IMG/VR virus record: IMGVR_UViG_3300024999_000107
Coordinates: 1 to 61,805 of that record
Reading direction: 5' to 3' (one strand)
From: a virus
Taxonomy: Duplodnaviria > Caudoviricetes
DNA length: 61,805 nucleotides
Part shown: piece after piece, positions 2,124 through 54,147 of the stretch
Layout: every line of letters starts with the position of its first letter
How positions within the stretch are numbered: the first letter of the stretch is position 1
Program-made: the position numbers and the translations under genes
The notes under the pieces: model-generated
Seen by the model: the letters and a program-made list of their open reading frames with translations, nothing else
Database searches by the model: none
Told to the model about the DNA's origin: nothing

Positions 2124-3100
2124 ATGGATAAAGATCGTTATTGGTTAAGAAATAAAGTTACATGGGGAATTACATATGATGACAAAAAAGTAACCATAAA
2201 GGTTGAAAGTTTAAAATGTAAAGACATAAAATACAAAGAGACTTATGAGTCAAAATCATATCCTTATAGTGAAGAAGATATGAAACAATTTTTAAAAATT
2301 AGGGATGATCTAGTAACTAAGGTTGTCAAAGAAAACAGAACCAGAATTAGTGATGCGGAACAATCTTTAACTGATTTTATTAAAGATAATTCAAGCATAT
2401 GGGATTTAAACGACACAAAGGATTTTATTATGGAACATAAAAAAGATTTGCTTAAATTAATTGCAAATTTGTAGAATAAAGGAGAAGTTTGTTATGAAAT
2501 ATGAGAAATGTTTAACCTGTAGGTTTGAGCATCAAGGTAATAATGGAAATTATTATCCTTGTGATAAATGTGATGGAATTAATCAATATGGAGAAAAAGA
2601 TAAGATGTTATGTTCTCATTGTGGTAATTCTATATGGATAGATTAATATCCTATAAGTTCTTTATTTTACGGGAATGAAAGGAGTAAATAAATTGAACAA
2701 ATATGATGTAAGATGGTGCGTTAAATACTTGCCTAAAACTTTATACTAGCATTCTAAATATATCCCTAAACTGCACATATAAAGAATGCAATATAGACTA
2801 TAAAACTTGTAAATATATTTTAAAAGTACCTATTTATTAACCATATGTAAAATAGTTATTTTCCAGAAAAGCATTGTTTGACGCTATAATAGAAAGGATG
2901 ATACATAAATGAAATTAACTAAAAAAGTAATCGAGAAGAAATATAATTGTGAATTGATCAGAGACTTTGGATTTGATGATAGTCATTTATATTGGGTAGC
3001 ACATGAAAATGAATCAAGTGATAAAGGATTTGAATTTGCTGATGGATGGACACTAAAAGAATTGGTTAACAACATTGAGAAAAAGTTAAAGAAACAATAA
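2124..3100 (+). CDS. Small hypothetical proteins (2124-2474, ~2494-2646 Cys-rich, 2909-3100)
   Basis: ORFs with RBSs. Confidence 0.6.
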
Positions 3101-3164
3101 TTTTCAATAATATAAATTTTACAATTGATGGGATTCAAGTTTAATTGAATATATAAATAAATAT

Positions 3165-3193
3165 TTGCTATTTTCTAATTAATATATTATACT
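3165..3193 (+). promoter_or_regulatory. SigA-type promoter for the mazG-like operon
   Basis: TTGCTA-17 bp-TATACT. Confidence 0.6.
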
Positions 3194-3217
3194 TATTAAG
3201 GAAAGAATTATAAGGAG

Positions 3218-3526
3218 GTGAACAAGATTATTAAATTGCTAGAAAATATCCAATCACTAAGTATTAAAAATGGAAAATCATTAGAACAAATATGTCTTAA
3301 ATTATCAGAAGAAACTGGAGAATGTTCACAAGCATTATTATCTTACATAAATGCTGAAGGAAGTGTCTATAAGGGGTTAGGATCACAAGATGTTAAAGAA
3401 GAGTGTATAGATGTAATTATGGTCGCTATATCATTATTTTATAAATTAGGTGGAGATAATGAAAAATTAGTTAATCTTATTAATGTTAAGATGGAGAAAT
3501 GGCAAAAGACAGTTGGTATTAAATAA
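3218..3526 (+). CDS. MazG-like nucleotide pyrophosphohydrolase
   Basis: LSEETGECSQA...VKEECIDV: EExxE/ExxD metal-binding motifs of the MazG family. Confidence 0.85.
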   Translation: MNKIIKLLENIQSLSIKNGKSLEQICLKLSEETGECSQALLSYINAEGSVYKGLGSQDVKEECIDVIMVAISLFYKLGGDNEKLVNLINVKMEKWQKTVGIK

Positions 3527-3543
3527 AGAAAGAAGGAATAATT

Positions 3544-4989
3544 ATGCCTAATTTATTACAGGGTGTTAAAATAGAATACAATATTGAGTTTCTTATGCAA
3601 CCACAAGAGACTAACACTGTCGCAGATTTAAAGAAAGTATTAACTTTGTACAAACAATCAAAAAATTTATTAAAAACAGTTCCAAAAGAATTTCAAGATG
3701 CAATTGACTTAAAATTAAAAAAAGATGTGAACTCAGTAAGAAATGAAAAGTGGAAGACACATAGGAGTTTACCAGACAAATTAATAAGACAATATAATCA
3801 TGATGGTGAGTATTCTGATGTCTTAACTGCTTTAAATGCGTTACCAAAGGTAAAAATATCAGAATTTAGAAATCTTGCTGATAAATTTAACATGGTTATA
3901 ATTCCGGTTGAATATACTGAAGTGGATAAAATATTTGATATCCAAAAGAATTCAGGTGAATTAAAACAAGGATTAAAATATTTTAATGAATTGTTACGAC
4001 AGGATACAACCACGAAATATCAAAGCTACATATTATGCCCTATTGACTATTATAATATTTGGGAGCAAATTAAGAGTAATAAATTATTGAAAATATATTA
4101 TGCAGAGTATTTTGAGAATATATTTCAAACCTTAGAATTAATAATTCCTACTCAGAAAAATTTGTATTTAGCATCTAAAACTAATGACGAGAATCTAAAA
4201 GCATTAAGTTTGTCTTTTGATACAAATATTAAAACATTGAATGATAAAATTACTTCTATTTCTTCTAAAGTAAATAAGTTAGAATTAGAATTTATAGAGG
4301 AAAAGAGAAGGACTAGAAATCAAATCGAAGGATTACAAGATGCCCAGGCATCATTGCAAAATACAGTTCTCCAACAACAAAGACAAATTGAATTTCTATA
4401 TTGCCAATTAGATCCTATTCTATTTGCTGTTCCTAAAGAAACAGATATTGTTGAAGACGATTCGGTATCTATTGTAGGACTCTGTTGGGGTGAAGATATA
4501 GATGAAATGATTTTTGATATGAAAGGGATAACTATTGAACATAAAGATTTAGCAGAAATTAATCCTTTAAGTATAAAATCCAAAATGGATAAGGATGGTT
4601 TTAAATTAGAGTATGGGAAGATTGTTGATGTTGAGGAGTATATTTTAGGGATTATAAAAGATAATCTTCAGGAATTAAATAATAAACGATATATGAGATT
4701 CTGGAATGATAATGAGAAAGATTATAAAATCAAATATAAATTGTTTAATGAATTTAAAATAGTATTTGCGTATGAGAAAAACTATTCTAATACATTTATT
4801 AAATTAATGGAAATTCATGATAAGAATGATAAAGTTTTAACTAGTACTGTTTGTAACTATTGTTCATTAGATTCTTTATGTGAAGAAGATTTAAATAATA
4901 ATGAAAAATTCTTCAACACATATAAAAAATGGTTTAATGATTTAACTAAACAGTTTCATGAATATTGTAAAAATAATATTATAATTTAA
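3544..4989 (+). CDS. 481-aa hypothetical protein with central coiled coil
   Basis: Long ORF, heptad-rich region around aa 215-285, then LDPILFAVP...GLCWGED. Confidence 0.75.
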   Translation: MPNLLQGVKIEYNIEFLMQPQETNTVADLKKVLTLYKQSKNLLKTVPKEFQDAIDLKLKKDVNSVRNEKWKTHRSLPDKLIRQYNHDGEYSDVLTALNALPKVKISEFRNLADKFNMVIIPVEYTEVDKIFDIQKNSGELKQGLKYFNELLRQDTTTKYQSYILCPIDYYNIWEQIKSNKLLKIYYAEYFENIFQTLELIIPTQKNLYLASKTNDENLKALSLSFDTNIKTLNDKITSISSKVNKLELEFIEEKRRTRNQIEGLQDAQASLQNTVLQQQRQIEFLYCQLDPILFAVPKETDIVEDDSVSIVGLCWGEDIDEMIFDMKGITIEHKDLAEINPLSIKSKMDKDGFKLEYGKIVDVEEYILGIIKDNLQELNNKRYMRFWNDNEKDYKIKYKLFNEFKIVFAYEKNYSNTFIKLMEIHDKNDKVLTSTVCNYCSLDSLCEEDLNNNEKFFNTYKKWFNDLTKQFHEYCKNNIII

Positions 4990-6826: not shown

Positions 6827-7486
6827 ATGAAATATTATAGCATACATGAATTTTCAAAGTTAATATCTAGAACTCCACAAACTCTTAGGAATTGGGATAA
6901 AAATGGAAAACTAACTCCCAATCATACTGGAGCTAATGGTTATAGGTATTACTCGCACCAACAATTAAAAGAAGTTCTTAACATTAAAGATGACTCAGAA
7001 AAAAGTAGAATAGTAATCGGATATTGTAGAGTTTCTTCTAATAAGCAAAAAGATGACTTGCAAAGACAAGTTGATAATTTGTCAAAGTATTTGGAATCTT
7101 TAAACAAACCATATGAGATAATCACTGATATTGGTAGTGGAATTAATTATAAGAAAAAGGGACTCAGGGATTTATTGAAGAAAATCAATAATAAAGAAGT
7201 AGACAAAATAATTATTCTTTGTAAAGATAGACTTCTTAGATTTGGTTTTGAATTAATAGAATATATGGCTAATCTTAATGGTTGTGAAATAGAGATATTA
7301 GATAGCACTGAGAAAACACAACAAGAAGAATTGGTGGAAGATTTAATACAAATTATCACTGTTTTTAGTTGTAGACTTCAAGGTAAACGAGCTAATAGAA
7401 CTAGAAAAATGATTGATGATTTAATCAAGGAAGGAGATGAGGAAATTGATCAAGGGAATCAAAGTGATGCTTGTACCGAACAATAA
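6827..7486 (+). CDS. tnpA: IS607 transposase (MerR-like HTH + serine recombinase)
   Basis: TPQTLRNWD...GYRYYS HTH; GYCRVSS...QKDDL, DIGSG, DRLLRFG. Confidence 0.95.
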   Translation: MKYYSIHEFSKLISRTPQTLRNWDKNGKLTPNHTGANGYRYYSHQQLKEVLNIKDDSEKSRIVIGYCRVSSNKQKDDLQRQVDNLSKYLESLNKPYEIITDIGSGINYKKKGLRDLLKKINNKEVDKIIILCKDRLLRFGFELIEYMANLNGCEIEILDSTEKTQQEELVEDLIQIITVFSCRLQGKRANRTRKMIDDLIKEGDEEIDQGNQSDACTEQ

Positions 7487-8627
7487 GCAAAATACTTTAA
7501 TGTTTCAAAATGCTGGAACCGCAAGGTGGGCATATAACTGGGCATTGGGTAGAGAAAAAGAGAATTATGCAGATGGCGGTAAATTTATTTCAGATAATGA
7601 TTTAAGAAAAGAATTAACTCAACTAAAGAAAGAAGAAAAATTTAGTTGGTTGAATAGTGTTTCTAATAATGTACCAAAACAAGCAATTAAAGATGCTTGT
7701 ACTGCTTATCAACGATTCTTTAAAGGGCAAGCTAAGTTTCCTAAATTCAAGACTCGAAAAAAATCTCCTCCTAAATTTTATCAAGACAATATTAAAATTC
7801 AATTCACATCAACTCATGTTAAATTTGAAGGATTTGCTAAAAGTACAAAGAAAAATAAACAGCAATTAAACTGGGTAAGATTAGCTGAACATGATAGAAT
7901 TCCTTTTGGTAAAGATGTTAAGTATATCAATCCAAGAATCTCACATGATGGTTTAAATTGGTGGATTAGCGTTGGAATAGAATATCCAGATAGTCTTGAA
8001 ACACCATTAAATGAAGGAATCGGGATTGATGTAGGCATTAAAGATTTAGCAATTTGTTCAGATAAAGTTGCTTATGGTAATATTAATAAAACCAAAAAGA
8101 TGAAAAGATTAGAGAAGCAAAAGAAACGTCTTCAAAGACAAGTATCTAGAAGATATGAAGCGAATCGTGATGGTTTGAAATATATTAAAACTAAGAACAT
8201 TATTAAACTGGAACATAAAATTAAATCAGTTCAACACGAACTTAATGGGGTAAGAGATAATTATCTCCAACAAACGACTACTGAGATCGTGAAAACCAAA
8301 CCATCTTTTGTATCGTTAGAGGATTTAAATATTTCTGGAATGATGAAGAATTGCCATTTATCTAAAGCAATTCAACAACAAAGCCTGTATGAGTTTGGAA
8401 GACAGATTAAATACAAAGCAGCATGGAATCATATTGAAGTTAGAATTGTAGATAGATGGTATCCTTCAAGCAAAACATGTCATGATTGCGGTAAAGTTAA
8501 CAAGTTATTAAATTTAAACGACAGAGAATGGGTTTGTACTGGCTGTGGAAGTATTTTAGACAGGGATTATAATGCTTCATTGAATCTAAGAGATACAGAT
8601 AAATACAAGATATTTAAAGTAGCATAA
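7437..8627 (+). CDS. tnpB: RNA-guided nuclease TnpB
   Basis: RuvC motifs GIDVGI, LEDL, DRDYNA; zinc finger CHDC...CTGC. Confidence 0.95.
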   Translation: MRKLIKGIKVMLVPNNKQNTLMFQNAGTARWAYNWALGREKENYADGGKFISDNDLRKELTQLKKEEKFSWLNSVSNNVPKQAIKDACTAYQRFFKGQAKFPKFKTRKKSPPKFYQDNIKIQFTSTHVKFEGFAKSTKKNKQQLNWVRLAEHDRIPFGKDVKYINPRISHDGLNWWISVGIEYPDSLETPLNEGIGIDVGIKDLAICSDKVAYGNINKTKKMKRLEKQKKRLQRQVSRRYEANRDGLKYIKTKNIIKLEHKIKSVQHELNGVRDNYLQQTTTEIVKTKPSFVSLEDLNISGMMKNCHLSKAIQQQSLYEFGRQIKYKAAWNHIEVRIVDRWYPSSKTCHDCGKVNKLLNLNDREWVCTGCGSILDRDYNASLNLRDTDKYKIFKVA

Positions 8628-32644: not shown

Positions 32645-33001
32645 ATGGATTTAAGAATGTATATATTAGTCAATGAAGATATAAAGATTAATAAAGGAAA
32701 ATTGGCTGGTCAAGTAGGTCATGCGGTAGCAGTATATTTCTATAATACAATGGATGATAAAAATAATCTATACGATTCAACTATTGAATTATATATGACG
32801 AATTATCAAAAGAAAATTATTTTGTATGCTCCGCAATCTAAATTAGAGGAATTAGAAGAGAATAAATATATTACAATTAGAGATAGAGGATGGACAGATT
32901 TAGAACCTAATACATTAACTTGTGTTAATATGGGCATTATTGATTATGATGATTTTCCAAAAGAGTTAAATTGGTTAAAGAATTTAAAATTATGCAGATA
33001 A
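32645..33001 (+). CDS. Peptidyl-tRNA hydrolase, Pth2 family
   Basis: KGKLAGQVGHA...KKIIL...IRDRGWTDLEPNTLTC. Confidence 0.88.
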   Translation: MDLRMYILVNEDIKINKGKLAGQVGHAVAVYFYNTMDDKNNLYDSTIELYMTNYQKKIILYAPQSKLEELEENKYITIRDRGWTDLEPNTLTCVNMGIIDYDDFPKELNWLKNLKLCR

Positions 33002-33058
33002 GTTATCAATTCCAAACAAAGAATAGATTTATTTGATAAGAAAGGAATATAATTTTAA

Positions 33059-33805
33059 ATGGGAGTAAAAATTCAATTAAAAAGTGGAGCAGTACATAAT
33101 TACCCTGATGCAAAATTAACTAAAGAATTTTTTGAAGATTGGTTATTAAATAGTAAAACTTATTTTGATGCTTTAGAGAATGATGATACATGTGTTATTT
33201 ACAGAATTTCAGAAATAGAAAGTATTCAAATAGAAAAGTAAAAGGAGGAAATAAAATCATGTGTGAAAATAATAAAGGACATAAACATGTCATAATTAAC
33301 ATTCTACCTCAAAGTCCAGTTGCTTGGTTTTTTATAATGTGGATTGGTATATTTTTTGCTTGTGCAGGGGGAGGAAAATAATCATGGACTTAGCAGATGT
33401 AATTAAAAATTGTAAAGATAGGGAAGTATATAAAGCTACTTTCGCTATTGATGAGTATTGGTATATTACTAAAATTTCTGAATGTTTTTGGTATTGCGAT
33501 GAATATGGCAAAGGATTTGAAGATATATCAGCAGTGCCTTTGACTTATAGTAATTTGAGAGCAGAGTATGAAAAAGTTTAGAAAGGAACTTAATAATTAT
33601 GTTAAAATTTGAGGAAATGTTTCTCAAAGGGATACTAAAATATAATGAGGAACATAGAAATATTCCAGACCAATATTCTATAATGAAAGAGTGGGAAAGT
33701 TTCCTAGAAGAGTCTAGACGTTTCTTAGAGAAAACAAAAAATAGAAAACCAATAGTTGATTTTAAAGTCAGAGATGAATTAAAATTAAAATATGACAAAT
33801 TGTGA
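33059..33805 (+). CDS. Small hypothetical proteins (33059-33241, ~33259-33381, ~33384-33581, 33599-33805)
   Basis: ORFs with RBSs. Confidence 0.55.
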
Positions 33806-33827
33806 TCAAATGAGGTGATATAATCAC

Positions 33828-34409
33828 ATGATCGAATCAATACTCCTCTCATTCTTAATCTCTAAATCTAAAATCCATATAGAATTAGGGAAATTAAAAT
33901 TCCAAAAAGAATCATACAAACTGACTCCTATATTCAAACATTGGAGTATTTACCCCATGATTATTATGTCAATCTTCTATATCTATTTAGAATACTCAAC
34001 ATGGAACAATGATTACTCCTTGCTACAATACTCTAATATCTTCAGAATGGCATTTCTAAGCTCTTTTCTAGTCTTAGCAATACATTACAACCAAACAATG
34101 AAATTACTTCAAGGAATCATATTTATGTCGATTGGAACAGTTCTGAATAATATTGCTATCAAAGTAAATTCAAATCATATGCCGATATTCCCTTCCATTA
34201 CATTTTCTACTGGAGTTACAAATCCAGATAAATTCCTTGATTCATCAATGTATGGAGATTTTCATGTCATAGGGGATTATACAACAAAATTAATACCACT
34301 TTGCGATTTTATGGACAATGGAATAAGTACGTATAGTATCGGAGATATATTTATATTTTCTTTTGCATTTATTCTAATTTATGGTTCTGTTAAAGCATCT
34401 AATATTTAA
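33828..34409 (+). CDS. DUF5317-family membrane protein
   Basis: GTVLNNIAIKVNSNHMPIFPS...HVIG...TKLIPLCD...SIGD; multi-TM. Confidence 0.75.
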   Translation: MIESILLSFLISKSKIHIELGKLKFQKESYKLTPIFKHWSIYPMIIMSIFYIYLEYSTWNNDYSLLQYSNIFRMAFLSSFLVLAIHYNQTMKLLQGIIFMSIGTVLNNIAIKVNSNHMPIFPSITFSTGVTNPDKFLDSSMYGDFHVIGDYTTKLIPLCDFMDNGISTYSIGDIFIFSFAFILIYGSVKASNI

Positions 34410-34438
34410 CAAAAATAAAAATAATTTATAGCATGGAC

Positions 34439-34467
34439 TTGTAAACCACTTGACTTTCTGTTATAAT
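34439..34467 (+). promoter_or_regulatory. Promoter for receptor-agrD
   Basis: TTGTAA-17-TATAAT with TG extension. Confidence 0.6.
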
Positions 34468-34504
34468 TATCTAAAGATTATAAATAAAAGATAGAGAAAG
34501 AGAG

Positions 34505-35335
34505 ATGGGAATATTTATGCAAGGAATCACAAATATGTTCTTTAACTTGATTTTAGTAACTATACCGGAGCAATTCTTCTTAGTGGTTATGACATTAATA
34601 TTTCTAAAGAAATTTGGAATTTTAGATGTATTGATGTGGAAACAAAACATTAAGTGGATATTAATCCCAGTAATACCAATATCAATTATTGAGGATATAA
34701 ATACTTTTATAATTACAAATAATTTATTTAGTCAGATATTAACCATTCTAAATCTAGTGTTTTTTTACATATTAATGGTATATGTAGCAAAAAAGAATAG
34801 TGACAACTTCAATATGAGAGATTACAAAAAAATATTCGCAGGTTTAGCTATAAGTCTTTTAATATTAGGAGTTTTAGAATCTGTAACTGCTCCAATAATG
34901 TTATTATTATTGAATAAACCTTTAACATATATTAATGATAATGCGATTTGGAACTTTGTCGGAAGTTTTCCTTCAAGAACATTTGAATTTTTAATACTTA
35001 CATTTTTTATTATTAAAAACAATAATGCTGTAAAAATTCAAATGTTTGATTCAATATCTAGACACAATTCACTACTTGTTCCTATTACAACTTTCGTAGT
35101 TTTATCCAATATATTTGCAGTTTATCTTATAAAATTAGTTGGAGGAGATAAAATCCTAGACAAAGTTTCAACATTGGGGCAAGTAATTATATCAATGAGT
35201 ATTTTAGTTGTTCCTGCACTCGTATTATATCTAATATTAATGATAATAAACTTTTTCTTAGTTCGAGAAAAACAAGCCCATAAAGTTTACGAAAATCTTG
35301 CAACGCAAGATAAGGTAGTAGACTTTGATATATAA
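34505..35335 (+). CDS. Polytopic membrane protein, AgrC-sensor-like, lacking a histidine-kinase domain (putative AIP receptor)
   Basis: About 7-8 hydrophobic segments with intramembrane Glu; directly upstream of agrD; only a ~20-aa tail, no H-box or HATPase. Confidence 0.55.
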   Translation: MGIFMQGITNMFFNLILVTIPEQFFLVVMTLIFLKKFGILDVLMWKQNIKWILIPVIPISIIEDINTFIITNNLFSQILTILNLVFFYILMVYVAKKNSDNFNMRDYKKIFAGLAISLLILGVLESVTAPIMLLLLNKPLTYINDNAIWNFVGSFPSRTFEFLILTFFIIKNNNAVKIQMFDSISRHNSLLVPITTFVVLSNIFAVYLIKLVGGDKILDKVSTLGQVIISMSILVVPALVLYLILMIINFFLVREKQAHKVYENLATQDKVVDFDI

Positions 35336-35368
35336 TTAATTTTATATGGGTGAGAGGAGGTGAATACA

Positions 35369-35500
35369 ATGAAAGTAAAAATGTATACGGTTGTTGCTAG
35401 TCTATTGGGTTTGGTAGCAATGGGCCTTGTTCAAACTGCTTGTCGTTTCTGGTTTTTTCAACCAGAAGAAGATCAAACTCCAAAGTGCTTAAGTAAATAA
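35369..35500 (+). CDS. agrD: AgrD cyclic autoinducing-peptide precursor (43 aa, not in ORF track)
   Basis: RBS GAGGAGGTG; MKVKMYTVVASLLGLVAMGLVQTA-CRFWF-FQPEEDQTPKCLSK has a leader, a Cys-x4 ring and a [HYF]QPE..P tail like clostridial AgrD. Confidence 0.9.
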   Translation: MKVKMYTVVASLLGLVAMGLVQTACRFWFFQPEEDQTPKCLSK

Positions 35501-35510
35501 GTAAACATAA

Positions 35511-35538
35511 GTAGGGAGGATTTTATAGTCTTCCCTAC
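35511..35538 (+). terminator. Hairpin after agrD
   Basis: GTAGGGAGGA-ttttatag-TCTTCCCTAC. Confidence 0.65.
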
Positions 35539-35579
35539 AACTATAAAAATAATTATTTTATAAATATAGTATAAGACTG

Positions 35580-35609
35580 TTGACATTTGAATACACTTTA
35601 GTATATAAT
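35580..35609 (+). promoter_or_regulatory. SigA promoter for the HTH-mazF/agrB operon
   Basis: TTGACA-18-TATAAT, followed by an imperfect inverted repeat AATTAGATAA...TTATCTAATT. Confidence 0.65.
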
Positions 35610-35668
35610 TAGATAAATAAATTAATAAAATTAATTATCTAATTGCTAATAAAAAGGAGTGTATTGTT

Positions 35669-36463
35669 ATGTTAGACACATTGGTCAAAAAATTTAATAC
35701 AGAGGAAAATATTAAAAAGGATTTCAAAAAAGTAGCCAGTTATGTAATTAAAGCAAAAGGTAGCGAAAGATCAATCGGAGGTTTTGCTGGAGATTGTGGG
35801 GTTAGCGGGCAATATATGGAAAGTGTTATAAAAGGGAAAATAAATTGTTATCCCCAAATGCAGTTCCTAAAAGTTGTATCTGATAATTCCGAAGGCAGAG
35901 TTTCATTCAAGGATTTAACACTAGCTTGCGGTTATTCTAATTATTGTAATAATGACTTGGAACAAATTAAAAATATAAAAATTGAGAGAGGTGGAATTTA
36001 TTTTTGTAACTTTGGCGATAGTGGGATTGATAGTGAGATAACTGGTCATCGTCCAGTGTGTATAATTCAGAATTCTATAGGCAATGCACGAAGCAGTAAT
36101 ACCAAAGTTCTCACAATCACCAGTCGCAGTAAAGCAAAATTGCCGACGCATATAGAAATAAGTAGCAAGGAATATAAAGGCTTAACATCTGATTCTATTA
36201 TTTGTTGCGAAGTTGAAGACACTGTTAGTAAGAGAAGATTAATATCTGGATCTGGAGTAGTAGAAAAAATAGCACAGTGTTCTCCTGAATTACTACTTCG
36301 TATTTCTGTGGCAGTAGCCAAGGCAGATGGAATCATTGATTTAAATGTACCTGAAAAAATTGCCATTGAGGCTTTAATGAATTTGAATAGAGGAATAACT
36401 AAAACATATCAATTTGAAAATAATCGCAATCTAAATACAGCCAAACAATCAGTATTTGCTTAA
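35669..36463 (+). CDS. XRE-type HTH fused to a MazF/PemK endoribonuclease domain
   Basis: N-terminal KAKGSERSIGGFAGDCGVS...LTLACGY HTH; C-terminal ERGGIYF...SEITGHRPVCIIQNSIGN...TITS...KAKLPTHIEI aligns with Bacillus MazF/EndoA, catalytic Arg and Thr kept. Confidence 0.85.
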   Translation: MLDTLVKKFNTEENIKKDFKKVASYVIKAKGSERSIGGFAGDCGVSGQYMESVIKGKINCYPQMQFLKVVSDNSEGRVSFKDLTLACGYSNYCNNDLEQIKNIKIERGGIYFCNFGDSGIDSEITGHRPVCIIQNSIGNARSSNTKVLTITSRSKAKLPTHIEISSKEYKGLTSDSIICCEVEDTVSKRRLISGSGVVEKIAQCSPELLLRISVAVAKADGIIDLNVPEKIAIEALMNLNRGITKTYQFENNRNLNTAKQSVFA

Positions 36464-36477
36464 AGAAAGGAGTTTTA

Positions 36478-37101
36478 ATGATTTTACTTAATAATTTATC
36501 AAATCGTTTTGCAAAATACTTATCCACAATAGTACCAAACTCTAAATATCCTTCTATAAAAGATCAAATTGAAGTTTATGATTTTGCTATCAAGGGGGTT
36601 TTTGAAGAATTATCTACTATGATATTATTAATCTTATTTTCATTGGTTTTAGGTGTATTTACTCCTGTTATATTTATTGCATTAACTTTTATTTCATTAA
36701 GAAGTATAGCAGGAGGAATACACCTTTCAACGCATAGAAGATGCCAGATTATGTCTATAGTGATGTTTATTGGATCTGGATTGATTATGAAGTTGATATT
36801 AAGGTGTCTGTCTATTCAAAACATCTATTTTTTGTTGTTATTTTGTGTCTTAACGACGTTATATATGGTAGTTAGGTATATTCCTAGGGATTCAATAAAC
36901 AAACCGATTACAGATCCTTTAGAAAGATTAAAATTCAAAAGATTGTCATTGTATTATATTATAATATGGACAATTATAATGACAATCTTTCTCCACCTTA
37001 ATTTAAAAATAATTGTCATTGCTAGTTGTTTTGGATTATTGTTAGAATTATTTAATTGTAGTAAAATGGGACAGTTTATTTCCTTTATAAGTGATTCATA
37101 A
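36478..37101 (+). CDS. agrB: AgrB peptide-processing membrane protein
   Basis: FISLRSIAGGIHLSTHRRC (His/Cys dyad) and RYIPRDSINKPI motifs. Confidence 0.92.
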   Translation: MILLNNLSNRFAKYLSTIVPNSKYPSIKDQIEVYDFAIKGVFEELSTMILLILFSLVLGVFTPVIFIALTFISLRSIAGGIHLSTHRRCQIMSIVMFIGSGLIMKLILRCLSIQNIYFLLLFCVLTTLYMVVRYIPRDSINKPITDPLERLKFKRLSLYYIIIWTIIMTIFLHLNLKIIVIASCFGLLLELFNCSKMGQFISFISDS

Positions 37102-37208
37102 AAATTAGTCCTAAAGTCCTATGACATTAGACCTATAAATAAAATACAATCATGTCGAAAAACAGAACATAACGTGTCAACATTAAGAAATTATTGGTAA
37201 TTTTGTTC

Positions 37209-37237
37209 TTGATTCCTGAACAAATGTTCTATATACT
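37209..37237 (+). promoter_or_regulatory. LexA (SOS/Cheo) box inside a SigA promoter
   Basis: TTGATT-17-TATACT with GAAC-AAAT-GTTC at 37218-37229 in the spacer. Confidence 0.75.
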
Positions 37238-37318
37238 ATTATCAAGGAGGTATTAAAAGAATTCAGGTACTATTTGTAGAATATACCAAATATTAGAAAC
37301 TAAAGGAGAAGTGAATAA

Positions 37319-37756
37319 ATGGAATGTGTTAAAAAAATAGATATTAATAAGGAAAGATTTATATGGACTATTAAGGATCAAGACGGTAATTATTGTCAAA
37401 AAACTAGTATTTGCAAATTAAATAATAAAGAATGGATATACATACCTAGTGAAATTAATTCTAAAACATTTTCTCAAGAATCTAGAGGGTACATAACTAA
37501 AGAGTCGGCTGAAAAAGCATTGGATTTATTAAATAAAAAGAAAATAGTTGCAGGATTTGATCTTACATTTCATATTGAAAGACTTAATCTAGATGAAATA
37601 ATTGAAGAGAGTGTGCAATTTCAAGGGAATAATTTGGTCATATGTGATAAAGATTCTTCAACTAATCCTTGGGAAATTGTAAAAGCATGTATTTGTTCCT
37701 ATATGTGTTTATGTTGTCTTCATCAATGCTTGGGTATGATGACGAATGTAATTTAG
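37319..37756 (+). CDS. 145-aa hypothetical protein, predicted SOS-inducible, Cys-rich C-terminus
   Basis: RBS AAAGGAG; downstream of the LexA-boxed promoter. Confidence 0.7.
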   Translation: MECVKKIDINKERFIWTIKDQDGNYCQKTSICKLNNKEWIYIPSEINSKTFSQESRGYITKESAEKALDLLNKKKIVAGFDLTFHIERLNLDEIIEESVQFQGNNLVICDKDSSTNPWEIVKACICSYMCLCCLHQCLGMMTNVI

Positions 37757-37783
37757 TAATTAATAGACCAATTAATTATGCAA

Positions 37784-37828
37784 TATAATAAACTACTTCT
37801 TCTATTCTCCGTGGAGTAGTTTATTATA
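37784..37828. terminator. Long hairpin separating the SOS gene from the repressor operon
   Basis: TATAATAAACTACT...AGTAGTTTATTATA. Confidence 0.65.
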
Positions 37829-37847
37829 TAAAAATAAGTATTATTCC

Positions 37848-37912
37848 TTGACATTATTAGGGAAGTCATGATATATTATATTATATAAGTGTGTCATTAC
37901 TGTGACAATAAT
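37848..37912 (+). promoter_or_regulatory. Promoter of the yopQ/yopR-like operon with possible operator
   Basis: TTGACA-18-TATATT; downstream palindrome TGTCA-6-TGACA. Confidence 0.55.
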
Positions 37913-37920
37913 GCGAAGGA

Positions 37921-39315
37921 GTGATATTTATGCTAAAAGAAAAATCGGTTGAATTGATTCGTGGGCTTAATGTATTAATTGAAGATTATGCATCGAACGA
38001 CAAGGTAAGAAAAATAATTGTTGAAGAGTTTGACAAAAGAAATATGAAAGGTAGTTTAGCAGTTGGTATTCTAAATAAAAATAGAGAGTTATCCACGTTA
38101 GATATTGATGAAAGTAAAGATTTAATCATATTGTTTGTTTTTACTATGAGCATGTATAACGCACTAATGTTTAAGGAATCAGATGATAAAGAACCATTGG
38201 GGAAAATTGAAGAAATATTAATGATTAATCCTAAAAATTATTTCAATGAAATTGAGATTGAAAACTTAAATGATTATAAATTTGAAAAGAAAGTAGATAA
38301 AAAAGACGAAGTTATTGTTTTCCCTAAAATGAATAGAATTGCTACTGGATTTTATTCTGGATATATATCAGGAAAACAATTCGCCGAATTAGATGCTGGA
38401 AATGAACTCATCTATAATTTTAAAACGCAACGTGATCCACTTATTGATGTGTATGGAATGAAGCGAATACACTTAAACAAAACAAATGCAAAAGAAATTA
38501 GAGATGGTGTTCTTTCAGGAGATCAATTTCCAACTACTATTGTGGTAAATGTTCTTAAAGATGGTACTGATGAATTAGATTATGATGAAAAAACAGGTGA
38601 TTTATTTATTATTTCAGGAACTAAAAATCTAGTTGACGGATTTCATCGGAAGGTCGGAAATAGCTTGGCCTTCGCCATTAACCAAGATTTAGAGTTCAAC
38701 TGGTTATTAGTTGTAACAAATTACAGTGAAATTAGAGCGCAAAAATATATGGTAGAAATTAATAAACAACAAAAAATGAAGCAAGAGCATATTAAAAATA
38801 TGGATACTGCTAGTCTTGGAAATGTAGTCGTAGATGCAATTAAAGATATTGATACCTCTGAATTTGCAGATCAAATAAAGGATAACGATAAAGAAATTGG
38901 ACATTTTGAACTTGAACATTTCGGCATGGCTAAGAAGTCCACATTGGCATTAGCTATTGAAGAGTGTTATGGAGATAAATTAACTAATAAGCTTCAAGTA
39001 AGACCTATTGCAAAGCATATAGCAAATGTTATGGATTATATTATAGGACTGCATGTAGAAGAGTTTATGGAACATCCTGAAGCTACTCAGAAGGTAAGTT
39101 ATATCAATCATAAGAATATGTTCGCAGGATATATCGCTTTGTCTGAGCGATTATATGGTGTGAAAAAGTGGGAAGATATTCTTGAAGAAATTTTAAATAA
39201 GATAGATTTCAGTATGGAAAATACATTCTGGGATGATATTAAATTGAACAAAGATTCAGATATGAAAAAGTCTACACGGACAAATTTATATAAATTCTTT
39301 CAGAAATTAATTTAA
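37921..39315 (+). CDS. SPbeta YopQ/SroE-like protein (ParB/DndB-like DGxHR domain)
   Basis: 464 aa; IYNFKTQRD...LVDGFHR...INKQ; directly precedes the YopR homologue as in SPbeta. Confidence 0.75.
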   Translation: MIFMLKEKSVELIRGLNVLIEDYASNDKVRKIIVEEFDKRNMKGSLAVGILNKNRELSTLDIDESKDLIILFVFTMSMYNALMFKESDDKEPLGKIEEILMINPKNYFNEIEIENLNDYKFEKKVDKKDEVIVFPKMNRIATGFYSGYISGKQFAELDAGNELIYNFKTQRDPLIDVYGMKRIHLNKTNAKEIRDGVLSGDQFPTTIVVNVLKDGTDELDYDEKTGDLFIISGTKNLVDGFHRKVGNSLAFAINQDLEFNWLLVVTNYSEIRAQKYMVEINKQQKMKQEHIKNMDTASLGNVVVDAIKDIDTSEFADQIKDNDKEIGHFELEHFGMAKKSTLALAIEECYGDKLTNKLQVRPIAKHIANVMDYIIGLHVEEFMEHPEATQKVSYINHKNMFAGYIALSERLYGVKKWEDILEEILNKIDFSMENTFWDDIKLNKDSDMKKSTRTNLYKFFQKLI

Positions 39316-39330
39316 AGGAGATGCTTTAAA

Positions 39331-40362
39331 ATGATTGAAATTGCAAATGATGAATTACAAAATGAAGAAAAAGTGGAATTTAAAGTTGATCCTGAAGTTA
39401 AGGAAGAATTTTTAGAAAAACAATTAAAATCTACTAGAAGTTATTATCGTTATATTTTAAAACTTGCAGATGATTTTGAAGTAAAACTTGGTAAACCTAT
39501 TTACAACTTTAATACAGAAGAGAGAGACGAATTATTAATTGTGCAATATAAAAACAAAAACAAGTTCGCTTTTCAAACTGTTTTATCTCCATTAAAAACT
39601 TATGTAGATTTTTGCATTTCACCTAAGAATCTAGTACGACACAATGAAAACAGGTTTTCTAGCATTTTAACATCGAACTATAAATTTTATATTAATTCTC
39701 AAGCAAAAGAAAATTCCTATATTCCTCTATCAGAGTGTCGAGAATTTCAATCTAAATTAGCAAATTATCAAGATAGGGCAATTCTTGAATTACCAAGTCT
39801 AGGGGTTAGAGGCCGTACTGAAAAAGGCAATACTCTTGAAGAATTAGTAAACCTAAAAGAAGACGATATTAAATGGGAAAAGAAAAGATTATATCTTACC
39901 AAAAATAATGGCGAATTGAGGTGGATTGAAGTTGATGACTATACTTTAGATTTACTCAAAAAAACCATTAATCAAGATTTTTATATTTCAAATAATGGAT
40001 TAAAAACAAAACCCAATGAAAATGGGGTATACGAAAGTACAGATAAGGGAAGAATGATTAATAAAACTGAATATGTATTTAGAGTCCCAGGGAGCAACAA
40101 ACATGGCAAGGTCGATTATCAATTTTTTGCTAGTAGAATTCAACGGATGCAAAAATGGTTAGGAAAACCTTATATTAGTGTAAGTAATTTATACTTCTCT
40201 GCTATTATTGAATATGCTAAAAAGTTGAAAAAAGAGAAAGGCGAATTGACTAGAGAAGATTATCTTTCAATTAATGAGAGATTTGAATTTGGTGAAACTA
40301 AGGAGAAATATGTTTTTAAAACTAGAGAACTTATTGAATCGTATCTGAATGATGAGAGGTAA
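39331..40362 (+). CDS. SPbeta YopR/MrpR/SroF-like master repressor (tyrosine-recombinase fold)
   Basis: EVKEEFL...KPIYNF...YVDFCI...LANYQDRAILEL..GVRG...EELVNL parallels YopR as I recall it (EIKEKYL...LVNYQSKAVLRLLFEGVSG); no canonical HxxR. Confidence 0.8.
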   Translation: MIEIANDELQNEEKVEFKVDPEVKEEFLEKQLKSTRSYYRYILKLADDFEVKLGKPIYNFNTEERDELLIVQYKNKNKFAFQTVLSPLKTYVDFCISPKNLVRHNENRFSSILTSNYKFYINSQAKENSYIPLSECREFQSKLANYQDRAILELPSLGVRGRTEKGNTLEELVNLKEDDIKWEKKRLYLTKNNGELRWIEVDDYTLDLLKKTINQDFYISNNGLKTKPNENGVYESTDKGRMINKTEYVFRVPGSNKHGKVDYQFFASRIQRMQKWLGKPYISVSNLYFSAIIEYAKKLKKEKGELTREDYLSINERFEFGETKEKYVFKTRELIESYLNDER

Positions 40363-44417: not shown

Positions 44418-45017
44418 ATGAAAATTACATTCAATAAAAACAACCCACATGAATTTATAAATAATATAAAATCAGTTACTAAAAATAAAAATGTATTGTT
44501 TGCTTGTGTTGGCACAGATAGAAGTACAGGCGATTCTCTAGGGCCAATTGTAGGAAGTTCCTTAGAATTATTAGGGTATAATGTTGTTGGTACTTTAGAT
44601 GACCCTTTACATGCTAGTAATATAGTTGAGCGTATGGAAATCTTGAAACAAATGAATTATGATTTGGTAATTGCTGTTGATGCTTGTTTAGGGAAAATAG
44701 ATAATATTAGCAACATTTATTTAAATTATTCATCATTAAAACCTGGAACAGGAGTTGGTAAAGAATTACCAGAAATCGGAGATTATTGTATTACCGGAGT
44801 TGTGAATATTTCAGGGTTCATGGAATACATGGTGTTGCAAAATACTAGATTATCTATAGTTATGAATATGGCAAAAATAATTGTTGAAATGATTAAAATA
44901 GCGATTCCATTAGAAGAAAATATTATTGAAGTTATACGTAATGGCAAAGAAAATAGTATGACTTTATTTGAGAAAGCAAAATCGATGTTTATTCCAAGAA
45001 AAATTAAATTGGCTTAA
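44418..45017 (+). CDS. yyaC: Spore protease YyaC (DUF1256)
   Basis: CVGTDRSTGDSLGPIVG...PLHA...IAVDACLG...LKPGTGVGKELP...LQNTRL. Confidence 0.93.
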   Translation: MKITFNKNNPHEFINNIKSVTKNKNVLFACVGTDRSTGDSLGPIVGSSLELLGYNVVGTLDDPLHASNIVERMEILKQMNYDLVIAVDACLGKIDNISNIYLNYSSLKPGTGVGKELPEIGDYCITGVVNISGFMEYMVLQNTRLSIVMNMAKIIVEMIKIAIPLEENIIEVIRNGKENSMTLFEKAKSMFIPRKIKLA

Positions 45018-52155: not shown

Positions 52156-54147
52156 ATGAAAAAGATTGAACAAATTCAAAACCTTATTAAAGAACTAAAT
52201 AAGCACTCCTACGATTATTATACCCTTAGTAACCCAACTATCTCAGATTCCCAATATGACTCAAAATACACCCTACTGGAAGCCTTACAAAAGGAATCTA
52301 ATTACATACCAGAAGATAGCCCCACACAACGAATTGGAGATATAGTTTTAGACAAATTTGAAAAACATGAACATAAAGCAAGGTTATATTCAATGGACAA
52401 AGCACAAAATATGGATGAACTTGATGATTGGCATAAAAAGAATGAACAGTTTGTAAAACAAAATAATCTGCCAAAACTTCAATATGTTGTAGAGAAAAAA
52501 TTCGACGGACTGACAATTAATAATACTTATAAAAGTGTATTATTGTCTTCTGCCACAAGGGGAACTGGTGGAATTAAAGGTGAATTAGTAACATCACAAG
52601 TAAAAACAATTAAATCTATTCCATTACGAATTGCTTGTGGTTATGTTATTGAAGTTCATGGCGAAGCCTATATGAAGAAAAGTGCTTTTAAAAAATATAA
52701 TGAAACAGCTAAAATTCCTTTGAAAAATGTAAGAAATGGTGCTGCCGGAGCAATCAAAAACTTAGATTCAAAAGAAACTGCTAATAAAAACTTAGACGCT
52801 TTCTTTTATGACATTGGATACAGTGAAGGAATTAAATTCACAACTTACATTCAAATGATGAAGTTTATCACAGAAATGGGATTGCCAGTAGATCAAGATT
52901 ATTATCTATGTAATACCATTGAAGAAGTTAAAGAAAAAATTGCTTTAATTGAAGAACTTAGACCTAATTTAGATTATGAAATTGATGGAGCAATAGTAAG
53001 CATCAATGATATCAAAACAAGAGAAGCAATGGGATTCGCCACAAAGTTTCCTAAGTGGGCAATTTCATTTAAATATGAGTCAGAAGAAACAACTACAGAA
53101 TTATTAGATATTGAATTCAGGACTGGTCGTACAGGGAAAGTAACTCCTAGAGGAACTTTAGAACCTGTAGATTTAATGGGTTCGACCGTTAGTTATGCTA
53201 CCTTAAATAGCATGGACGATATCAAGAAGAAAGGAGTAAAAATTGGTGCAACAATATTTATTCGGAAGTCCAATGACGTTATTCCTGAAATTTTAGGAGT
53301 AGTAGAGGATAGTATTACAGAGGATATGCTTGAAATTAAAATGCCCACTCATTGTCAATCATGTGGAAGTGAATTAGTACAGGATGGAGTTCATTACTTT
53401 TGTATGAATTCATTAGAATGCAAGGCACAAATTGTAAAATCAATATCTCATTTTGGAACAATCCAAGCAATGGATATTGATGGATTCAGTGAACAAACTG
53501 CGTTGCTCTTTGTTGAAAATGGAATTATCAATAATATTTTGGATTTGTTTAGTTTGGAAAACAAAAAAGATAAAATCATTAAACTTCCTAAATTCGGGAT
53601 TAAAAAATACAATAACCTAATCCAAGCAATTAAAAATTGTAAAAAGGTAAAATTAGAGTCGTTTATTTTTGCTCTAGGAATTGATGGAATTGGATTAGGA
53701 GGTAGTAAAAACTTATGTAAACATTTCAATAATGATATTACTGAAATTATGAGTGCAAAGGTAAAAGATTTATTATTGGTAAAAGATTTTGGGCCAATTG
53801 CTTCAGAAAATGTTTATAGTTATTTTATGGATAATGACAATTGGATTCAAGTATCTGAACTATTAAAACATATTGAGATTATCAAAGAAGAAAAGAAGGA
53901 AGTGATTAATGTGGATGGAGTTTTTGCAGGTAAAAAACTGTACTGCACTGGTAGTTTCGAATCACATAAGAAGGATGAATTAAAAGCAATCATAGAGGGG
54001 TTAGGTGGGGAATTTGGATCAGGTTACGCTAAGTCCTTGGACTATTTGGTGGTAGGTAAATTAAAAGGTTCATCTAAAGAAGCAAAAGCGTTAAAAGATG
54101 GAGTTCCAATTTTAACTGAAGATGAATTTTTAGAAAAAATAAAATAA
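52156..54147 (+). CDS. ligA: NAD+-dependent DNA ligase
   Basis: EKKFDG, ATRG, RNGAAG, EIDG, GRTG, zinc finger, HhH repeats, BRCT. Confidence 0.96.
   Translation: MKKIEQIQNLIKELNKHSYDYYTLSNPTISDSQYDSKYTLLEALQKESNYIPEDSPTQRIGDIVLDKFEKHEHKARLYSMDKAQNMDELDDWHKKNEQFVKQNNLPKLQYVVEKKFDGLTINNTYKSVLLSSATRGTGGIKGELVTSQVKTIKSIPLRIACGYVIEVHGEAYMKKSAFKKYNETAKIPLKNVRNGAAGAIKNLDSKETANKNLDAFFYDIGYSEGIKFTTYIQMMKFITEMGLPVDQDYYLCNTIEEVKEKIALIEELRPNLDYEIDGAIVSINDIKTREAMGFATKFPKWAISFKYESEETTTELLDIEFRTGRTGKVTPRGTLEPVDLMGSTVSYATLNSMDDIKKKGVKIGATIFIRKSNDVIPEILGVVEDSITEDMLEIKMPTHCQSCGSELVQDGVHYFCMNSLECKAQIVKSISHFGTIQAMDIDGFSEQTALLFVENGIINNILDLFSLENKKDKIIKLPKFGIKKYNNLIQAIKNCKKVKLESFIFALGIDGIGLGGSKNLCKHFNNDITEIMSAKVKDLLLVKDFGPIASENVYSYFMDNDNWIQVSELLKHIEIIKEEKKEVINVDGVFAGKKLYCTGSFESHKKDELKAIIEGLGGEFGSGYAKSLDYLVVGKLKGSSKEAKALKDGVPILTEDEFLEKIK

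Follow-up and report, generated by a model that had tools for sequence, protein, structure and literature searches.

Introduction

To our knowledge, all textbook agr systems relay their peptide signal through autophosphorylation of AgrC. In the arbitrium system of SPbeta-like Bacillus phages (AimR-AimP-AimX), the peptide is linear and imported into the cell, and its cytoplasmic receptor is the transcription factor itself. Phages can also carry agr genes: the agr3 locus of the C. difficile phage phiCDHM1 encodes an AgrC of 453 amino acids (aa) with a HATPase_c domain (PMC3901668), and the phage homologues named in the relevant passages of a 2025 review are agrB, agrC and agrD only (PMC11945551). 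Here we describe a membrane protein that is related to the sensor part of AgrC and lacks a kinase, encoded within a 61,805-nucleotide (nt) stretch of viral DNA (Duplodnaviria; Caudoviricetes; IMG/VR virus record IMGVR_UViG_3300024999_000107, positions 1 to 61,805), which we call the window throughout. Its gene stands directly ahead of agrD in a phage module that also encodes AgrB and a fusion of a helix-turn-helix (HTH) region to a MazF-type endoribonuclease. Our searches of the open-access literature turned up neither an AgrC-like family that lacks the kinase nor an agr module of phages that includes MazF.

Compared with the AgrC-like, LytTR-coupled kinases of Firmicutes, the phage protein is alike in its polytopic N-terminal membrane module, which is homologous by profile comparison, in the buried Glu residues of helices 1 and 4, in a last membrane helix that runs on into a cytoplasmic helix, and in the linkage of its gene to agrB and agrD. 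Gene order differs, the sensor gene preceding agrD here whereas AgrC systems are arranged agrB, agrD, agrC. Further, the sensor module of AgrC is present without the three features that define the rest of the protein and its pathway, namely the helix with the phospho-accepting His, the GHKL-type ATPase domain and a nearby LytTR regulator (AgrA) as partner. The phage sensor should therefore not be filed as AgrC, although in function it may yet correspond to the sensing half of one. The phiCDHM1 locus resembles the present one in combining phage agrB and agrD and, as far as its published description extends, in having no AgrA-type regulator; it differs in its full-length kinase, where the present module has none and adds the HTH-MazF fusion and a DUF5317 protein (PMC3901668). 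The family described below has thus kept the sensing part, lost the kinase and remained paired with agrD, and it is common in phages.

A candidate membrane sensor without a kinase

34505..35335, + strand: gene for a kinase-less AgrC-type membrane sensor with seven helices, called from the list of open reading frames (ORFs), the relatives, an AlphaFold2 model and profile comparison

The sensor ORF opens with ATG and encodes 276 aa. Because the relatives in the family alignment begin at its fifth residue, the start probably lies at ATG 34517, giving a protein of 272 aa. A model built by AlphaFold2 from the 7 close sequences alone was poor (predicted local distance difference test, pLDDT, 48.5) and was discarded; the one built from a 59-sequence alignment is confident (pLDDT 94.5; predicted template modelling score, pTM, 0.89). 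It consists of seven long helices, at residues 2-33, 42-69, 73-98, 104-136, 147-173, 188-214 and 223-274, the last of which extends about 25 residues beyond the membrane part, where the protein ends. Loops 34-51, 95-107 and 170-188 are rich in Lys and Arg and, read by the positive-inside rule, would place the N-terminus outside and the tail inside. A first-pass annotation made from the sequence alone had described an almost wholly membrane protein of 276 aa with no kinase remnant. The ORF call and the seven-helix model agree with this description, and there is no Pfam match to HisKA, SPOB_a or HATPase in the ORF, downstream of it or anywhere in the 61.8-kilobase (kb) record.

Searches of solved structures by sequence gave nothing useful (best E-value, E, 0.23 with the single protein; 0 matches with the profile). 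A Foldseek comparison, which the first-pass annotation had proposed, matched the model to nothing in the PDB at E≤0.001 (best 0.79), and a wide fold search with VIA-align reached at best Z 7.4, on generic helices and below the tool's noise level for helical proteins. The predicted model resembles no solved structure; since solved structures are all that was compared, a new fold is not implied. Neither the sensor region nor the protein matched any sequence in the phage collection, the protein had no match in the plasmid collection, and no Pfam family and no NCBIfam or PHROGs model covers it.

The sensor nevertheless has many relatives. An exhaustive phmmer search of 1.84 billion cluster representatives recovered 112 of them at E≤1e-3, with lengths of 53-326 aa, the shortest being fragments and none being kinase-sized. 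A word-indexed search returned the query's own cluster and 6 relatives, 7 proteins in all that measure 270-276 aa, with none longer, and a Pfam scan of 87 of the 112 relatives gave no match above a curated cut-off. Among the source names seen, the relatives are called just 'hypothetical protein' and come from Clostridia and Bacillota metagenome-assembled genomes (MAGs). The nearest ESM Atlas cluster has 637 members, 76% of them viral among the 216 with a known taxon. A narrower family alignment, scanned over the genome collection, found nothing. By these searches the sensor is a member of a separate, widespread family without a kinase, and a recent truncation is ruled out because no relative exceeds 326 aa or carries a kinase. 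The first-pass annotation had allowed for such a truncation, in which case close homologues would all carry kinase domains, and had asked whether homologues are consistently about 270 aa long; the relatives measure 236-326 aa, and 0 bear a kinase.

A long-tailed subfamily of 290-326 aa carries an extra cytoplasmic tail of about 60 aa, which hhalign pairs with the region of the kinases that holds the phospho-accepting helix; the tail has no His. We considered that this tail might be a remnant of that helix. Pfam did not confirm it, with no match to a phospho-accepting helix in 23 long-tailed relatives at E≤10; what speaks for it is the hhalign alignment.

We also considered an intramembrane protease. 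MroQ of Staphylococcus aureus, an Abi/CPBP membrane protease, is reportedly needed for Agr activity, and, like the phage sensor, it is polytopic, lies in the membrane and is not a product of the four canonical agr genes; it affects the peptide pathway, as the phage sensor would. The sensor has no Pfam match to Abi/CPBP, and its family alignments A1 and A3 contain no invariant His, where we take the Abi/CPBP family to be defined by Glu-Glu-Arg and His motifs. Unlike MroQ, the phage sensor is kin to AgrC sensors and not to proteases, and we rejected this assignment.

Homology to the sensor module of AgrC-type kinases

When the family profile (A2) was run against 399 Clostridia genomes, one weak match fell in the membrane region of a kinase of 452 aa (SPOB_a, HATPase_c_5) whose gene adjoins that of a LytTR regulator. 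Profile-to-profile comparison of A2 in hhalign gave a probability of 90.4% (E 1.4e-6) with this LytTR-paired kinase and 82.8% (E 9.4e-6) with a 424-aa kinase adjacent to AgrB. Against an alignment of 7 kinases, 6 of them encoded ≤1.5 kb from AgrB and 1 beside the LytTR regulator, the probability rose to 96.3% (E 1.7e-9, 257 columns), and with the sensor part of the kinases alone it was 85.9%. The composition of membrane proteins can inflate profile matches, which would weigh against this homology; the controls argue otherwise here. Reversing the kinase alignment gave 0.8%, eight column shuffles ≤0.1%, the AgrB alignment 0.1% and the membrane-GGDEF proteins from agr loci 0.4%. The similarity to AgrC sensor domains that the first-pass annotation had proposed to check is therefore upheld, at 96.3% and E 1.7e-9 with controls at or below 0.8%.

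Identity between the sensor family and the kinases is about 20%. The features in common include a membrane-embedded Glu in helix 1, within VSIPEE in the sensor family where the kinases have VSVPES or IET, another Glu in helix 4, and a SLPxR-like motif. In the hhalign alignment the phage-type proteins stop short of the position of the phospho-accepting His. Judged from these profiles, the sensor shares ancestry with the membrane module of AgrC-type (LytTR-coupled) kinases and with the first stretch of their linker helix. Two checks proposed in the first-pass annotation, on the length of homologues and on kinship with AgrC sensors, thus favour its view, the second with clean negative controls. 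Its suggestions about function (phosphorylation-independent signalling, for example by sequestering the HTH-MazF, a peptide sink, or interference with host AgrC) are taken up below as possibilities.

Linkage to agrD and agrB

35360..35500, + strand: agrD, precursor of a cyclic autoinducing peptide (TIGR04223, E 9.4e-7 and 7.5e-7, above cut-off)
36478..37101, + strand: AgrB peptidase/cyclase (PF04647, E 5.2e-33), beginning 14 nt after the HTH-MazF stop

The locus qualifies as an agr locus in that AgrB (PF04647) and AgrD (TIGR04223) are both present. From the stop of the sensor gene to agrD the gap is 24 nt if counted to GTG 35360 and 33 nt, as in the first-pass annotation, if counted to ATG 35369. 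The ATG has the better ribosome-binding site, GAGAGGAGG, and is the probable start. By analogy with known AgrD peptides, we read the predicted ring as CRFWF, followed by FQPEEDQTPK. Co-transcription of the sensor gene with agrD would be expected from the short gap, from a promoter-like site upstream (10/12 matches) and from a hairpin and a 12/12 promoter after agrD, all given in detail below. AgrB has an invariant His and an invariant Cys 7 residues apart (H82, C89), which we take to be the catalytic pair by analogy with S. aureus AgrB. The AgrB of the window had no sequence match in the phage collection, and an AgrB alignment scanned over the genome collection found a single locus, L013.

In phage-type loci, agrD follows the sensor gene within 41 nt without exception (12/12; 9 are distinct, as four share one sequence). 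Bacterial context was taken from the Clostridia genomes, 21 of 399 of which matched the profile, giving 17 family loci and the kinase locus. Of these 17 loci, 13 have an AgrD-type ORF ≤41 nt behind the sensor gene and on its strand, whereas L042, L043, L044 and L048 have none, so that sensor and agrD are paired in 25 of 29 loci in total. All of the bacterial peptides (13/13) and 7 of the 9 distinct phage peptides score above the TIGR04223 cut-off, the exceptions being L001, which falls under it, and L010, which is unmatched. The predicted rings vary from phage locus to phage locus and include CRFWF, SYFIS, SWLFS and SWAFS, among others. Of the 21 genomes that match the family, 19 encode AgrB, versus 127 of the 378 others (Fisher p 2e-7, uncorrected for relatedness; some of the weak matches among the 21 genomes are true kinases).

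The phage module and its bacterial relatives

The module runs in the order DUF5317, sensor, agrD, HTH-PemK/MazF, agrB, followed by yopQ-like and mrpR-like genes. The same module is present on ten IMG/VR contigs (54-230 kb) and on one 13.9-kb contig binned with a Clostridium MAG. Some phage loci have a second sensor paralogue after agrB, with no agrD behind it. A search of 5 related phage records, including 3 complete ones, detected no HATPase_c_5, HATPase_c or LytTR domain. The present record is itself estimated to be 35% complete, and related contigs reach 230 kb.

35669..36463, + strand: fusion of an XRE-like HTH region to a MazF/EndoA-type endoribonuclease (PF02452, E 4.6e-17; phrog_1936)

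The fusion stands between agrD and agrB in every related phage locus. Profile comparison with solved EndoA/MazF/PemK structures gave E of about 3e-28, the N-terminal region is weakly XRE-like (hhalign 42%, E 2.6e-4), and the protein carries a conserved 45-aa C-terminal extension. Arg128 is invariant, as is the PTH core of an LPTHV-like motif. A Ser/Thr-rich stretch of the TSR type is also conserved, with some replacements, reading TTR in L006 and SSK in L005. Arg128 and the TSR-type and PTH residues are presumably catalytic. No separate antitoxin gene is evident beside the fusion. A stand-alone PemK of about 135 aa is encoded upstream of the DUF5317 gene in L002, L003, L004, L010 and L013.

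Around the bacterial members, no kinase (HATPase_c_5/HATPase_c) or LytTR gene was seen in any of the 17 loci within the ORFs scanned, and DUF5317 was not seen beside the 17 members. XRE-type HTH_3 genes lie near 7 of the 17, and these neighbours share a C-terminal YLKLAV-like motif. Three bacterial loci have the gene order agrB, sensor, agrD.

Long-tailed members of 319-326 aa occur in L040, L043 and L044 in a conserved chromosomal setting with no agrB nearby. Their neighbours are an ORF of 123-131 aa without a Pfam family and a LytR_cpsA_psr gene, and only L040 has agrD behind the sensor gene.

A different arrangement was seen in seven Clostridia loci (L060, L061, L063, L066, L075, L079 and L083), in which agrB and agrD are followed by a membrane-GGDEF protein of about 400 aa, with no kinase. 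In six of the seven (all except L079) a membrane protein of 149-161 aa precedes agrB, with homology to helices 1-5 of the sensor family (96.6%, E 4.9e-10). Such GGDEF-type loci may couple a cyclic-peptide signal to cyclic di-GMP. Finally, L070 has beside agrB what is apparently a split AgrC (2275-3545), with a membrane ORF of 166 aa and then a separate SPOB_a and HATPase_c_5 ORF that is cut by the end of the locus. The 166-aa ORF had no match to the family profile at E≤0.01.

Possible modes of action

Our tentative proposal is that the sensor is a kinase-independent receptor or binding partner of the cyclic autoinducing peptide and signals by protein contact. Homology to AgrC-type sensors, the lack of a kinase and the linkage to agrD and AgrB are shown here; peptide binding, the partner and the output are inferred. 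The sensor would be made together with AgrD, whose precursor the AgrB of the same module would process, and the mature cyclic peptide would be bound by the sensor at its outer face, as AgrC does. The signal would then go inward without phosphorylation, through the conserved cytoplasmic loop 1 and the C-terminal helix, and the sensor would hold or release a cytoplasmic partner. For the phage, the XRE-HTH-MazF fusion is the most likely candidate, and it probably also regulates the promoter from which it is itself expressed with agrB; for bacteria, a likely candidate is an XRE-type regulator encoded close by. The phage module would in this way inform the adjacent SPbeta-type lysogeny genes of how dense infected or lysogenic cells are.

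The comparison of genes within the module offers weak support for direct contact between the sensor and a variable peptide. Over the 9 distinct phage loci, the sensor averages 42% pairwise identity, against 49% for AgrD, 49% for DUF5317, 56% for HTH-MazF and 58% for AgrB, making it the fastest-evolving gene of the module. In the pair L001/L006, HTH-MazF is 91% identical, AgrD 49% and the sensor 45%. Sensor identity correlates with that of AgrD (rho 0.79), HTH-MazF (0.80; 0.59 without L005) and AgrB (0.46), although these values come from 36 non-independent pairs among 9 loci, which counts against reading contact from them. A complex prediction for the sensor and HTH-MazF returned no answer (score 0.00) and counts neither for nor against contact.

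Several further observations weigh against the proposed receptor role. Conservation in the sensor is not cleanly divided between its outer and inner faces. Six of the bacterial members, the long-tailed ones, have no XRE neighbour. AgrB is encoded ≤6 kb away in only 7 of the 17 bacterial loci, so that the pairing with agrD is tighter than that with AgrB. The membrane-GGDEF protein is a possible different receptor, which hints at an accessory role for the 149-161-aa branch. Peptide binding and partner contact are here read from genomic context and homology, and the agrD pairing would suit handling of the precursor equally well.

This last point leads to the alternative that fares best, a serious rival although we rate it as somewhat unlikely, in which the protein assists in the production or export of the peptide. 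Within the membrane, it would take hold of AgrD or the thiolactone intermediate made by AgrB and aid translocation or leader removal, so that an AgrC-like peptide-binding fold would serve handling and not sensing. The agr field has yet to settle how the peptide gets out of the cell. An accessory would be compatible with the tie of the sensor gene to agrD in 25 of 29 loci, with the three bacterial loci ordered agrB, sensor, agrD, with the 149-161-aa homologues just upstream of agrB where a membrane-GGDEF candidate receptor follows agrD, and with a protein that has no output domain at all. There may also be a precedent by position in C. perfringens, where two uncharacterised ORFs upstream of agrB are reported to be co-transcribed with agrBD and a mutant was complemented only by a plasmid that included both (PMC2706048). 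However, no such protein takes part in peptide production in canonical agr systems, the kinship is with a kinase's sensor module and extends to the linker helix that carries the signal in AgrC, and the second paralogue after agrB in some phages, which has no agrD, is easier to see as a second receptor. Further, phages with an accessory in this place would encode a signal and no means to hear it. If the protein is nevertheless an export or processing factor, it would bear on how these peptides leave the cell.

Distinctly unlikely, in our view, is a decoy or dominant-negative protein that soaks up peptide at the cell surface or forms mixed dimers with an AgrC-type kinase of the host, muting or retuning quorum sensing of the host when infected or lysogenic, as the first-pass annotation had also considered. 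In favour of this, the sensor and the beginning of the linker through which dimers form are retained while the catalytic part is gone; related sensors also occur on AgrC-type kinases of Clostridia, and phages commonly carry genes that interfere with the signalling of their hosts. Against this stand the chromosomal bacterial members, which are paired with their own agrD and have a kinase nearby in 0 of 17 cases; a decoy for its own peptide, encoded in the same operon, would be hard to explain, and mixed dimers would predict closer kinship to host kinases than an identity of about 20%.

Phosphorylation would be retained if a separate soluble kinase, in the phage case one of the host, docked on the C-terminal helix. 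A natural split is seen in one bacterial agr locus (L070), and the cytoplasmic hairpin of the long-tailed subfamily aligns with the phospho-accepting helix region. We consider such a split kinase very unlikely here, as no kinase gene was found near the 17 bacterial members or in the 5 phage records, the phospho-accepting His position lies beyond the end of the phage-type proteins, and the membrane ORF of L070 is not matched by the family profile at E≤0.01. Finally, immunity against a toxic AgrD-derived peptide is highly improbable: a gene for a small secreted peptide next to one for a polytopic membrane protein is the classic bacteriocin-immunity layout, and the pairing in 25 of 29 loci would fit it, but AgrD peptides are known as signals and those found here are ordinary AgrD members above the TIGR04223 cut-off, the membrane protein is kin to a receptor module, and the module has no bacteriocin export or processing genes.

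We return to the kinase-independent receptor as our working proposal. If it is correct, the family would represent a new output logic for cyclic-peptide signals and would supply candidate receptors for agrBD loci without a kinase, and phages outside Bacillus would be running their own peptide communication beside a lysogeny switch, again tied to MazF. A more specific, phosphorylation-free pathway can be drawn, in which the receptor captures or releases an XRE regulator at the membrane, fused to MazF in large clostridial phages, and thereby connects density to transcription, RNA cleavage and an SPbeta-type switch. As a whole we hold this pathway to be rather unlikely; if true, it would be an agr-based counterpart of arbitrium.

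Putative regulatory elements of the module

33828..34409, + strand: DUF5317 membrane protein (Pfam PF17248, E 3.3e-15)
34439..34467, + strand: promoter-like site upstream of the sensor gene, TTGTAA-17-TATAAT with TG (10/12 matches)
35511..35538, + strand: GC-rich hairpin directly after the agrD stop, its sequence kept in 9/9 distinct phage-type loci
35580..35609, + strand: sigma-70 consensus promoter, TTGACA-18-TATAAT (12/12 matches)
35607..35644, no strand assigned: inverted repeat AATTAGATAA-N18-TTATCTAATT over the -10 and start region, operator-like

Of the 9 distinct phage-type loci, 8 (including L001-L005, L010 and L013) have a DUF5317 gene ahead of that for the sensor; none was seen in L006. 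The promoter-like site between the two genes is weak, as the promoter scan gave 35 sites versus 27.8 expected in this AT-rich region.

The hairpin after agrD has the form TAGGGA(A/G)GG-loop-CTTCCCTA and lies at the same place in L001-L006, L010 and L013, with both sequence and structure conserved. It was not called by the terminator scan because it has no U-tract, and no Rfam family was found in positions 33000-38000. It could be a terminator, an attenuator or a processing site.

The consensus promoter that follows would drive HTH-MazF and agrB, and a TTGACA hexamer occurs at the corresponding place in 8 of the 9 distinct loci. The inverted repeat over its -10 and start region looks like an operator. 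An exact related repeat, TAAGATAT...ATATCTTA, occupies the same place in L004, L006 and L010, and by our own reading imperfect copies are present in L001 and L003. Across the whole window, the 8-mer of this repeat shows no enrichment (15 found versus 11 expected).

Flanking lysogeny genes and the remainder of the record

37319..37756, + strand: ORF of 145 aa between the agr module and the yopQ-like gene
37921..39315, + strand: YopQ homologue, DndB-like (phrog_5732)
39331..40362, + strand: MrpR/YopR-like protein with a tyrosine-recombinase fold (Pfam MrpR_N_CB, E 1.4e-12)

The 145-aa ORF belongs to no Pfam or PHROG family, and similar ORFs are found in L001, L004, L005 and L013. Behind it, the yopQ-like gene aligns by tblastn with SPBc2 yopQ at 24.9% identity over 78% coverage (E 3e-15), and the mrpR-like gene aligns with phi3T and SPbeta-like phages at 26.8% identity over 88% coverage (E 5e-10). 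MrpR is described as having a tyrosine-recombinase fold (PMC10516654), and the MrpR/YopR-like protein of the window is a candidate master repressor. The yopQ and mrpR homologues after the module point to a clostridial phage with a lysogeny switch of the SPbeta type.

SPBc2 carries its arbitrium genes, yopK and yopL, immediately ahead of yopM-yopR. By this gene order the agr-type module occupies the place of arbitrium in a related SPbeta-type lysogeny architecture, and the two are alike in that each is a phage peptide signalling module just upstream of yopQ and mrpR. They are also alike in a tie to the MazF nuclease: AimX and YosL of phi3T are reported to bind host MazF (PMC10769878) and YopM to bind MazE (PMC10516654), and here the MazF domain is encoded by the phage and fused to an HTH region. 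Unlike arbitrium, the module described here would use a cyclic AgrD product made by AgrB, with a membrane protein as the candidate receptor.

Elsewhere in the window, two overlapping ORFs at 6827-8627 match transposase families (phrog_6620, phrog_506) and are presumably an insertion element of the IS200/IS605 or IS607 kind. A phage spore-protease-like protein (phrog_8268) and an NAD-dependent DNA ligase (phrog_3869) are encoded at 44418-45017 and 52156-54147, respectively.

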